From a virus (taxonomy: Duplodnaviria; Caudoviricetes): a DNA stretch of 55,845 nucleotides. Below, piece by piece: positions 1-1,232 of this stretch; positions within the stretch are counted from its first letter, which is position 1; each line of letters starts with the position of its first letter. Location of the stretch: the IMG/VR virus record IMGVR_UViG_3300034066_001434, positions 1 through 55,845 of that record; one strand, given 5' to 3'. The position numbers and the translations under genes are program-made. The notes under the pieces are model-generated. The model saw only the letters and a program-made list of their open reading frames with translations, was not told where the DNA came from and made no database searches.

Positions 1-1
1 T

Positions 2-232
2 TGGTTCACTGCTCTGGGAGTTAGCACGATGGCATTCAACCTGAATGGCTTCAACTTCAACCAGTCAATTCAAGATAGTCAGGGTCATGTAATTAATACA
101 TGGGCAGACATTCTGAATCGTGGTGGTCTCGGGATGGAGGTAATGCACGAAAGGAACGCACACAACTTCCCTCTAGATCTTGCTGCTGCTGATAGCACTC
201 CTGTTGCGCTCACTGCACCAGCCATCGGTTGA
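2..232 (+). CDS. psbA: Photosystem II D1 protein, C-terminal part (5' truncated by window edge)
   Basis: Frame from nt 2 reads [22 protein letters not shown]...[18 protein letters not shown], followed by a cyanobacterial-type C-terminal extension ([15 protein letters not shown]). Confidence 0.99.
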
Positions 233-252
233 TAAAAACTTTATAAGTTTTC

Positions 253-278
253 AGGGACCCGAAAGGGTCTCTTTTTTT
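253..278 (+). terminator. Rho-independent terminator after psbA
   Basis: AGGGACCC-GAAA-GGGTCTCT stem-loop followed by a T run. Confidence 0.9.
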
Positions 279-287
279 ATCCATGAC

Positions 288-316
288 TTGACAAGCCCTG
301 AAAACCATGCTATGAT
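288..316 (+). promoter_or_regulatory. Sigma70-like (early/middle) promoter for the endonuclease
   Basis: TTGACA (288-293), 17 bp spacer, TATGAT (311-316). Confidence 0.85.
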
Positions 317-344
317 GCTAGAGCAACCAAAGCCTCCGGTGCCT

Positions 345-707
345 ATGGAGATTATTGATGAACTAAAAACTAAATCATGTGTCTATTGCAATGAAACGAA
401 AAAACTGTCTGAGTTTCCTGGACATCGTGGACATAAGGATAGGCATGATACTAGGTGTAGAACATGTATTAGCGAGCAAAGTAAACTTCGGTATCAGTTG
501 AAAAAAACTGCACCACCAAAACCAGAGGTATGTGATCTGTGTGGAAAGACACCCCCACACAACAAAAAGATTGTTCTTGATCACTGTCATGATACTGGAA
601 AATTTCGTGGATGGATTTGCGATCCATGTAATGTTGGATTAGGAAATCTTGGGGATAATCTTAGTGGCCTATATAAGGCAGTAGAGTATTTAAAAACGAG
701 AAGTTAA
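345..707 (+). CDS. Endonuclease VII-family (His-Me finger) free-standing homing endonuclease, F-CphI-like
   Basis: CxxC pairs and CDLCG...LDHCHDTGKFRGWICDPCNVGLG Endo VII motif; lies directly downstream of psbA. Start placed at ATG 345 because the longer ORF from 180 crosses the terminator and promoter. Confidence 0.85.
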   Translation: MEIIDELKTKSCVYCNETKKLSEFPGHRGHKDRHDTRCRTCISEQSKLRYQLKKTAPPKPEVCDLCGKTPPHNKKIVLDHCHDTGKFRGWICDPCNVGLGNLGDNLSGLYKAVEYLKTRS

Positions 708-710
708 ATT

Positions 711-941
711 ATGGAAGAACAAATCATTGATGTTGAATCAACCGAAGTAGTTGAAGAAGAAACTGTATTAACTCCAGAGATCAGTTTTAATGAAGACAAG
801 ATTAAAAGTCCTGCAGAAATTCAACGAGATCTACAACAACTAAAACAATTAAATAAACAACTCAAAAAAATTAAACGTTACATCAAAAGTCCCATTCATA
901 CAATTCGTCAACTAGATGCCAAAGCTTCGATGAATCAGTGA
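711..941 (+). CDS. Hypothetical protein (acidic N-terminus, coiled coil)
   Basis: 76 aa ORF abutting the endonuclease gene. Confidence 0.7.
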   Translation: MEEQIIDVESTEVVEEETVLTPEISFNEDKIKSPAEIQRDLQQLKQLNKQLKKIKRYIKSPIHTIRQLDAKASMNQ

Positions 942-949
942 TATATAAT

Positions 950-972
950 AAGTAACCACAGGTTACTTTTTT
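950..972 (+). terminator. Probable terminator or processing hairpin directly before tRNA-Ser
   Basis: AAGTAACC-ACA-GGTTACTT followed by T run. Confidence 0.6.
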
Positions 973-1059
973 GGAGGGGCAATCCGATTGGCGACGGAAC
1001 CTGTCTTGAAAACAGTTGAGGTGTTAAAGCCCTTGGGGGTTCGACTCCCCCTCCCTCCG
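973..1059 (+). tRNA. tRNA-Ser(UGA)
   Basis: GGAGGGG/TCCCTCC acceptor stem, CT-TGA-AA anticodon loop, long variable arm, GGGGG-TTCGACT-CCCCC T arm, G discriminator; no encoded CCA. Confidence 0.93.
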
Positions 1060-1076
1060 TTGTTCACAAATACATT

Positions 1077-1232
1077 ATGGATGAGCAATTTTACAAAGAA
1101 CTATGTGAACGAATTCAACACAGCATACAAATTTCCGTCAAGCATGGACACAATGAGTATGCACTTGGATTAAAAAAATCAATTATGATTGTCAATGAAT
1201 TAAAACACAAATATCAAGCTGAGACTAAATAG
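1077..1232 (+). CDS. Small hypothetical protein (51 aa; MDEQFYKELCERIQHS...)
   Basis: Translated by hand; fills the gap after the tRNA and is below the ORF-track cutoff. Confidence 0.6.
   Translation: MDEQFYKELCERIQHSIQISVKHGHNEYALGLKKSIMIVNELKHKYQAETK
1224..1231 (+). promoter_or_regulatory. T4-type late promoter-like motif
   Basis: ACTAAATA about 25 nt upstream of the ORF at 1257, which has a GAGG RBS. Confidence 0.45.

Follow-up and report, generated by a model that had tools for sequence, protein, structure and literature searches.

An AGG-bearing haplotype at the group I intron insertion site of an intronless cyanophage psbA, and the free-standing Endo VII-motif endonuclease gene beside it

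Introduction

Free-standing endonucleases of the T-even phages, among them SegF, SegG and MobE, are said to carry out intronless homing. The closest described system to the locus examined here is that of Synechococcus phage S-PM2, in which psbA exon 1 ends with CAC GAG CGT and is followed by a 212-nt intron and then by AAT. This ORF-less psbA group I intron and the endonuclease F-CphI together constitute what has been called 'collaborative homing' (PMC6083498, citing Zeng, Bonocora & Shub 2009). In the outlines given by Fang et al. 2018 (PMC6083498) and Puxty et al. 2018, F-CphI cuts intronless psbA near the insertion site, the intron protects its carrier, and free-standing endonucleases spread by break repair with co-conversion of the flanks. 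The former account also separates an endonuclease clade, in which the Endo VII motif is C-terminal, from a resolvase clade, in which it is N-terminal (Fang et al. 2018, PMC6083498).

In this study, a stretch of 55,845 bases (hereafter the window) was analysed. It is an IMG/VR virus fragment from a T4-like cyanophage and is about 30% complete. At its left end, an intronless psbA with the rare codon AGG at R334 is followed by a free-standing nuclease gene, which we call W-type. The psbA gene is the best-known host-derived cyanophage gene and a standard diversity marker. The clades of psbA-adjacent nucleases are designated W (window), F (F-CphI), A (L218 type), B (L086 type) and S (L167 type), and their references are 28-46% identical in pairwise comparison.

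Results

Architecture of the psbA 3' end

The features of the locus are collected in Table 1. The psbA tail of the window shares 79-85% DNA identity with psbA of Synechococcus phages. Its four codons at H332-N335 can be read directly as originally described, and the D1 peptide is unbroken across them; since the peptide reads through the site uninterrupted, there is no intron in the window psbA. The original description of the downstream order is also borne out, in that the psbA terminator-like hairpin is followed by a promoter-like element, recognised by consensus matches, and by an Endo VII-family ORF with a PF02945 match. The block that contains the promoter region (286-333) is 96-100% identical in L003 and L004.

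At least 12 studies of lake and freshwater metagenomes contain the first 1,100 bases of the window. In addition, contigs with the identical site and nuclease gene, including AGG, were found in three further lake and freshwater studies (X2, X4 and X6), and the arrangement of the window is therefore not an assembly artefact.

Table 1. Positions of the features at the psbA-nuclease locus of the window
Feature	Position	Strand	Remarks
psbA 3' end, intronless, last 76 D1 codons and stop	2..232	+	ORF open at the 5' side, 5' part lost at the contig end
Patch that differs in a near-identical 14-kb contig (run X13, record 1)	130..217	+	14 of the listed differences
Codons H332-E333-R334-N335	CAC 146-148, GAA 149-151, AGG 152-154, AAC 155-157	+	In frame with ORF 2..232
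Variant site haplotype	148..160	+	A at -3, G at -1 and A at +6, counted from the insertion site, all matching nuclease carriers
S-PM2-type group I intron insertion site (R334/N335)	between 154 and 155	+	
psbA terminator-like hairpin (253-272) and T run	253..281	+	Conserved in L006
Sigma-70-like promoter, TTGACA-17-TATGAT with TG extension	288..316	+	11/12 matches; consensus matches only
Free-standing Endo VII-motif (DHHRN) endonuclease, W-type, 120 aa	345..707	+	PF02945, phrog_2633
Conserved 76-aa ORF	711..941	+	Right edge of the nuclease insertion

The W-type protein and its relation to F-CphI

The nuclease ORF has in-frame starts at 312, 315 and 345 and its stop codon at 705-707. The ATG at 345 is the likely start, because the ATG codons at 312 and 315 lie inside the -10 element and the relatives start at 345. 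A small hairpin found by pattern match at 334-350 on the plus strand takes in this start codon, and one contig of run X6 skips 333-351, over the hairpin. Hairpins that mask the start have been described for some T4 nuclease genes, and this one could do the same.

The ORF matches Pfam Endonuclease_7 (PF02945) with an E value of 2.2e-17 and 63.1 bits (cut-off 23.6) and phrog_2633, 'endonuclease VII', with an E value of 1.3e-26. The protein carries an N-terminal CxxC...CxxC zinc ribbon, followed by C63/C66, D79, H80, H82, R88, C92/C95 and N96, so that the conserved D, H, H, R and N are flanked by CX2-4C and CX2C. Both N-terminal CxxC pairs and all the other residues listed are invariant in an alignment of W, F-CphI, an F-CphI orthologue and three other psbA-adjacent clades. 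The best solved relative is the restriction endonuclease Hpy99I (PDB 3fc3), with an E value of 8.3e-13 over residues 11-118. The Endo VII motif is C-terminal, occupying residues 65-128 of the 131-aa translation. The window ORF is thus assigned as a DHHRN, or Endo VII-motif, endonuclease with predicted site-specific cleavage. A resolvase of the T4 gp49 type was rejected on the basis of the C-terminal motif and of a complete syntenic genome that has no PF02945 match.

The original prediction described this protein as F-CphI-like, and this description applies to the motif, in which all the DHHRN residues are present. On the other hand, orthology with F-CphI was rejected: W is only 28% identical to F-CphI of S-PM2 (E 7e-13, 22 gap positions) and is without a segment of about 20 residues, the S-PM2 gene is absent among the best 60 of 128 tblastn matches listed for the W protein, and true F-CphI orthologues, which are 54-100% identical by the same method, coexist with W. 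The window shows neither full-length similarity to F-CphI nor an intron-interrupted psbA. At 28% identity to F-CphI, the same specificity therefore cannot be assumed for W.

Layout of the locus in related phages

The protein-based scan of viral contigs for W returned 17 loci, and the metagenome scan added L220-L224 and L227. W-type genes with 79-99% identity are present in 8 of the 17 viral-contig loci, all of them directly upstream of a homologue of the 76-aa ORF. The simplest layout is that of the window, namely psbA, terminator, promoter and W.

The closest copies of W are found in L003 (99%), L004 and L005 (97%) and L227 (95%, partial). These four loci have a psbA group I intron exactly at R334/N335, with exon 1 ending CAT GAG CGT; the Rfam model Intron_gpI gives 84 bits for L003 and 81 for L004. 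Between psbA and W, each of them holds a true F-CphI orthologue, which is 75-80% identical to that of S-PM2 (78% in L227). The gap between psbA and W is filled differently in other relatives: by a clade B gene and an HNH gene in L007, by an HNH gene (Pfam) in L006, by a clade A gene, a 312-aa ORF and an HNH gene in L222, and by a 220-aa ORF in L220. For the 299-aa ORF of L004 and for the ORF within its intron, no Pfam match was found; the label 'GIY-YIG-like' for the L004 ORF would be a provisional one, taken from a single YIGKGK motif.

In L004 (2820-2890), L007 (2290-2327) and L220 (1140-1175), a remnant resembling the psbA C-terminus of the window is stranded on the downstream side of the inserted genes; in L007 and L220 it continues the reading frame of the inserted ORF, to whose end it is fused. 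The stranded tails are the scar of insertion adjoining the intron site.

Three further observations concern insertions in or near this gene. In L004 (1-350) and L005 (424-1147), psbA has a further interruption after codon 60, with an ORF of at least 100 aa that has no Pfam match. In L338 (2135-2350), and also in L340, a psbA intron separates A336 (GCT) from H337 (CAC), 6 nt beyond the S-PM2 site on the downstream side; it adjoins a clade B nuclease and represents a second insertion site in the same patch. Away from psbA, relatives of W with 49-54% identity lie between a class II ribonucleotide reductase gene and phoH in L012 and L014, which is again a place where two conserved genes meet.

An optional, selected and recently exchanged gene

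A synteny scan with the 76-aa ORF showed that in L416, L417, L418 and L419-421 psbA is followed directly by this ORF, without a nuclease. W is present in L003-L010, L220, L222 and L414/415 and absent from the syntenic L416-L421, and no PF02945 match was found anywhere in the 172-kb genome behind L420, which has terminal repeats and is rated 100% complete. The dN/dS of W is 0.02-0.10; W is a functional gene under purifying selection.

Between the window and L003, dS is 0.07 for psbA exon 1 and 0.15 for W, rises to 1.06 for the adjacent 76-aa ORF, and is saturated for most genes further on. Because dS is low in psbA exon 1 and W compared with the saturated flanks, the block from psbA through W can be read as having moved recently between otherwise distant genomes, ending at the 3' end of W. 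A block of this shape would be the trace expected of a break in psbA and subsequent copying through the nuclease gene. Optionality, purifying selection and recent exchange fit a free-standing homing endonuclease. Accordingly, the part of the original idea of intronless homing that stands is the optional gene and the recent exchange reaching into psbA, whereas the codon link is weak for W and the cutting of psbA by W is a prediction. The 5' end of the 76-aa ORF was examined as an alternative target, and no clear difference between carriers and non-carriers was found there in 16 sequences.

Two observations were made further downstream. The stretch 972-1060 of the window is tRNA-Ser with anticodon TGA according to ARAGORN, while the best clan member in Rfam is tRNA-Sec, at 49 bits (threshold 47); it is 93-99% identical to S-PM2, S-H9-2, S-RIM32 and the Streptomyces phages TunaTartare and Sham. 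Just after this tRNA, a 51-aa ORF (1077-1232) has 100% protein identity and a dS of 0.08 to L003, L004 and L220, with saturated neighbours, and forms a second island of recent exchange.

Recombination at R334/N335

The psbA of the window is a mosaic with respect to its relatives. Its exon-1 part (1-151) shares 97.9% identity with L003 and 95.9% with L220, whose tails reach only 77.6% and 73.2%. Conversely, its tail (152-290) shares 96.9% identity with L006, 94.5% with the remnant stranded in L004 and 93.9% with L010, and the exon-1 parts of these three are 89.8%, 90.4% and 76.2% identical to the window. In the alignment of the window with L003, the two agree until the three codons that precede the insertion site are reached, and they diverge thereafter. 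The window site from -9 to +21 is identical to that of the clade B carrier L352.

Short patches of difference were also found between near-identical genomes. The nuclease-free loci L418, with AGG, and L419, with CGT, share about 99% identity over 3.2 kb, yet 6 positions in a 30-nt stretch around the site differ. Similarly, the 14-kb X13 contig from another study differs from window positions 1-1100 at 17 positions, and among those listed, 14 fall into the patch given in Table 1; no listed difference lies in 218-785, and hence none across the nuclease gene. The X13 site reads CAT GAA CGA AAT GCT CAT AAT. As judged from these alignments, R334/N335 is a recombination hot spot, on which mosaic breakpoints and short conversion patches centre.

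The R334 codon and its association with nucleases

The rarity of AGG at R334, asserted in the original prediction, is confirmed. Among 79 scored psbA tails, taken from the best 80 of at least 597 protein matches and all intronless by construction, R334 is CGT in 52, CGC in 14, CGA in 4, CGG in 1, AGG in 4 and AGA in 4. The other Arg codon in the visible psbA tail of the window is CGT only, and across 13 distinct full-length psbA alleles that have AGG at this position, AGR accounts for just 2 of 140 other Arg codons. On this last count, codon usage was rejected as the cause of AGG; it remains a confounder for AGA in AT-rich phages.

The nuclease-protein scans for the clades are blind to the psbA codon. 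Clade A (72% or more identity) gave 15 loci, with AGA in 12, AGG in 1, CGC in 1 and an intron in 1. In clade B (60% or more), the 25 scorable loci comprise 12 with AGA, 8 with AGG, 1 with CGA, 2 with an intron after CGT and 2 with an intron 6 nt further. Distinct intronless carriers of clades A and B have AGR in 21/23 cases, compared with 7/69 in the nuclease-free background (Fisher 8.6e-13). The counts refer to distinct sequences and should not be read as independent events; moreover, the nuclease gene is physically linked to the site, and hitch-hiking alone could give the association. Carriers and background differ at -3 (C to A), -1 (T to A/G), +6, +9, +12, +15 and +19. Clade F loci numbered 73, and the intron follows CGT in all 53 that could be scored; the remaining 20 were left out, 12 being cut too close upstream and 8 showing no psbA site recognisable by motif although some 2 kb or more precedes the nuclease gene (five of these 8 inspected). 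Clade S is an exception to the AGR rule, its nucleases lying directly after an intronless CGT psbA in 4 loci (L167, L179, L195 and L372/373). The clade S sites share CAC AAT TTY or GAA CGT spellings, and the reference L167 is 46% identical to F-CphI.

In clade W itself, intronless carriers have AGG (window, L006, L007), AGA (L222/223), CGA (L220) or CGC (L010, L414/415), with CGT in 0/7, and the W carriers that do have CGT (L003, L004, L005 and L227) all have the intron. Before L414/415 were included, the comparison was 0/6 CGT against 44/69 in the background (p 0.0037). Within the syntenic lineage, CGT is found in 0/7 W-plus cases and in 1 of the 4 W-minus haplotypes (CGT, AGG, CGA, CGC), a split with a chance of 4/11, and the codon link for the W clade is weak there. 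The expected correlation between the R334 codon and the presence of an endonuclease thus emerged for clades A and B and only weakly for W.

Specificity of AGG for this enzyme was not upheld. The spellings of W carriers vary as listed above, L418 has AGG and no nuclease, and in X13 the nuclease gene, with no listed difference, stands beside CGA; AGG is therefore not required by the W enzyme and is at most one of several acceptable non-CGT spellings for W. In absolute numbers, AGR at R334 is no rarity. In the AGR pattern scan, the 80 matches listed of at least 120 stretches comprise 64 AGA, mostly without a nuclease, and 16 AGG. Three of these AGG loci end too soon downstream to be scored; among the 13 scorable ones, an Endo VII-type ORF lies within 1.5 kb in 2, and none was found over that distance in the other 11.

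Discussion

Based on the results presented above, the window probably combines an intronless psbA and a free-standing, homing-type W nuclease with an AGG haplotype that is a nuclease-refractory spelling at a contested site. In this explanation, R334/N335 in lake cyanophages would be contested by several nucleases, namely F-CphI with its intron, clades A and B, and others, and double-strand-break repair at the site would yield the mosaic psbA, the stranded tails and the short conversion patches. The majority CGT allele would be susceptible to at least one Endo VII-motif nuclease. The window spelling GAA AGG AAC GCA belongs to a small group of minority synonymous haplotypes found with nuclease-bearing, intronless psbA genes, and in it C(-3) and T(-1) of the majority allele are replaced; together with neighbouring third-base changes, these replacements would remove contacts and leave the site proofed. 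A group I intron requires the upstream exon to end in U. The loss of T(-1) would also take away this U at the 5' splice site, and the site would be unusable for the intron without co-conversion. Proofing haplotypes would move both in company with nuclease genes and by themselves, in the form of short patches.

We infer that the haplotype blocks cleavage, and the protection given by AGG could be directed either against the phage's own nuclease or against those of co-infecting phages. That the W enzyme is itself among the cutters of the R334/N335 site is a possibility that we hold at well below even; it is suggested by the shape of the exchanged block and the absence of CGT from intronless carriers. 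F-CphI and intron cassettes have entered window-like genomes, as the stranded window-like tail in L004 records, and the lineage is therefore not immune to every invader.

A broader version of this explanation is tentative, and we consider it somewhat less probable than its converse. It envisages a many-sided arms race in which at least four Endo VII-motif clades and the intron home on R334/N335, silent AGG, AGA and CGA haplotypes with neighbouring third-base changes act as immunity alleles that spread as patches even into nuclease-free phages, and W cuts the CGT allele and rides with the proofed tail.

The original prediction was narrower: W would cut intronless psbA as F-CphI does, AGG would protect the phage's own genome, and nuclease and allele would spread together by intronless homing. 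It is favoured by the absence of CGT from all seven intronless carriers, three of which have AGG, by the intron that interrupts the site in every W carrier with CGT, and by the extent of the exchanged block, which reaches from the 3' end of the nuclease gene back into psbA, as expected for a psbA break. Such strict self-immunity is nevertheless unlikely. The X13 copy of the gene stands beside CGA, not AGG, as does a 98%-identical enzyme (L220), relatives of 79-80% stand beside CGC (L010, L414), and AGG is found in the nuclease-free L418. Moreover, the AGR carriers L007 and L222 also hold a clade B and a clade A nuclease, respectively, which are a possible cause of the codon, and W has only the low identity to F-CphI given above.

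It is slightly less likely still that AGG is a relic or hitch-hiker, acquired from a clade B donor by co-conversion or descent, with no effect on any nuclease, and that W targets another sequence. The identity of the window site to that of L352 would be accounted for, as would the row of psbA (AGG), clade B nuclease, HNH gene and W in L007, from which deletion of the middle gives the window layout; the W relatives beside phoH likewise show that such genes occur away from psbA. Yet near-identical genomes differ mainly at the site, which points to repeated breaks or selection there, and the AGR link spans diverse psbA backgrounds and two nuclease clades. That the ORF is not selfish at all, being a domesticated nuclease (a resolvase or a regulator of recombination in the psbA region) kept for the benefit of the phage, is very improbable: the strong purifying selection and the conserved place beside the 76-aa ORF in 8 viral-contig relatives would suit it, but the complete syntenic genome has no Endo VII-family gene, the C-terminal motif is the architecture of the endonuclease clade and not of the resolvases in the scheme of PMC6083498, and the low synonymous divergence against saturated flanks indicates horizontal movement.

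If the explanation of a contested site with refractory spellings is true, part of the psbA 'microdiversity' and mosaicism in lakes and oceans would be the footprint of a conflict among selfish genes and not of codon usage. The locus would also offer a natural series of target variants (CGT, AGG, AGA, CGA, intron at 0 and intron at +6) together with at least five related enzymes, from which it could be learned how Endo VII-motif homing endonucleases read DNA. In addition, 'collaborative homing' would be extended to carriers that are protected by silent recoding and not by an intron.

Comparison with known systems

The DHHRN family and the principle, that is, intronless homing with a variant target in the carrier and collaborative homing with an intron, are already known. 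Relative to the literature searched, which consisted mostly of abstracts, the distinct nuclease clade at this locus, its coexistence with F-CphI and the codon-level association are new. Silent proofing of cyanophage psbA is not described in these sources; Zeng et al. 2009 and Millard et al. 2010 may bear on this point.

Like F-CphI, W is free-standing, lies downstream of psbA and joins an N-terminal zinc ribbon to a C-terminal Endo VII motif; the locus is the same, and the mosaic breakpoints lie at the same insertion site. It differs in its low identity (28%), its missing segment of about 20 residues, the intronless psbA of the window and its coexistence with true F-CphI orthologues, and while psbA cleavage has been shown for F-CphI, it is a prediction for W. 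With T4 endonuclease VII (gp49), a Holliday junction resolvase, W shares the catalytic motif PF02945, but this motif is N-terminal in gp49 according to the description in PMC6083498, and W is absent from a complete relative. The match to Hpy99I includes both cysteine pairs and the catalytic block. Hpy99I is a methylase-paired enzyme of Helicobacter, whereas no methylase adjoins W, whose carrier would be protected by the site sequence itself.

The resemblance to SegF, SegG and MobE lies in the arrangement. In both cases an optional nuclease gene is located between conserved genes, flanking markers are co-converted, and silent changes close to the presumed target may set carriers apart from non-carriers. 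Unlike those enzymes, which have GIY-YIG or HNH motifs, W has an Endo VII motif, and at R334/N335 several unrelated nucleases and an intron appear to compete for one site in a host-derived photosynthesis gene.
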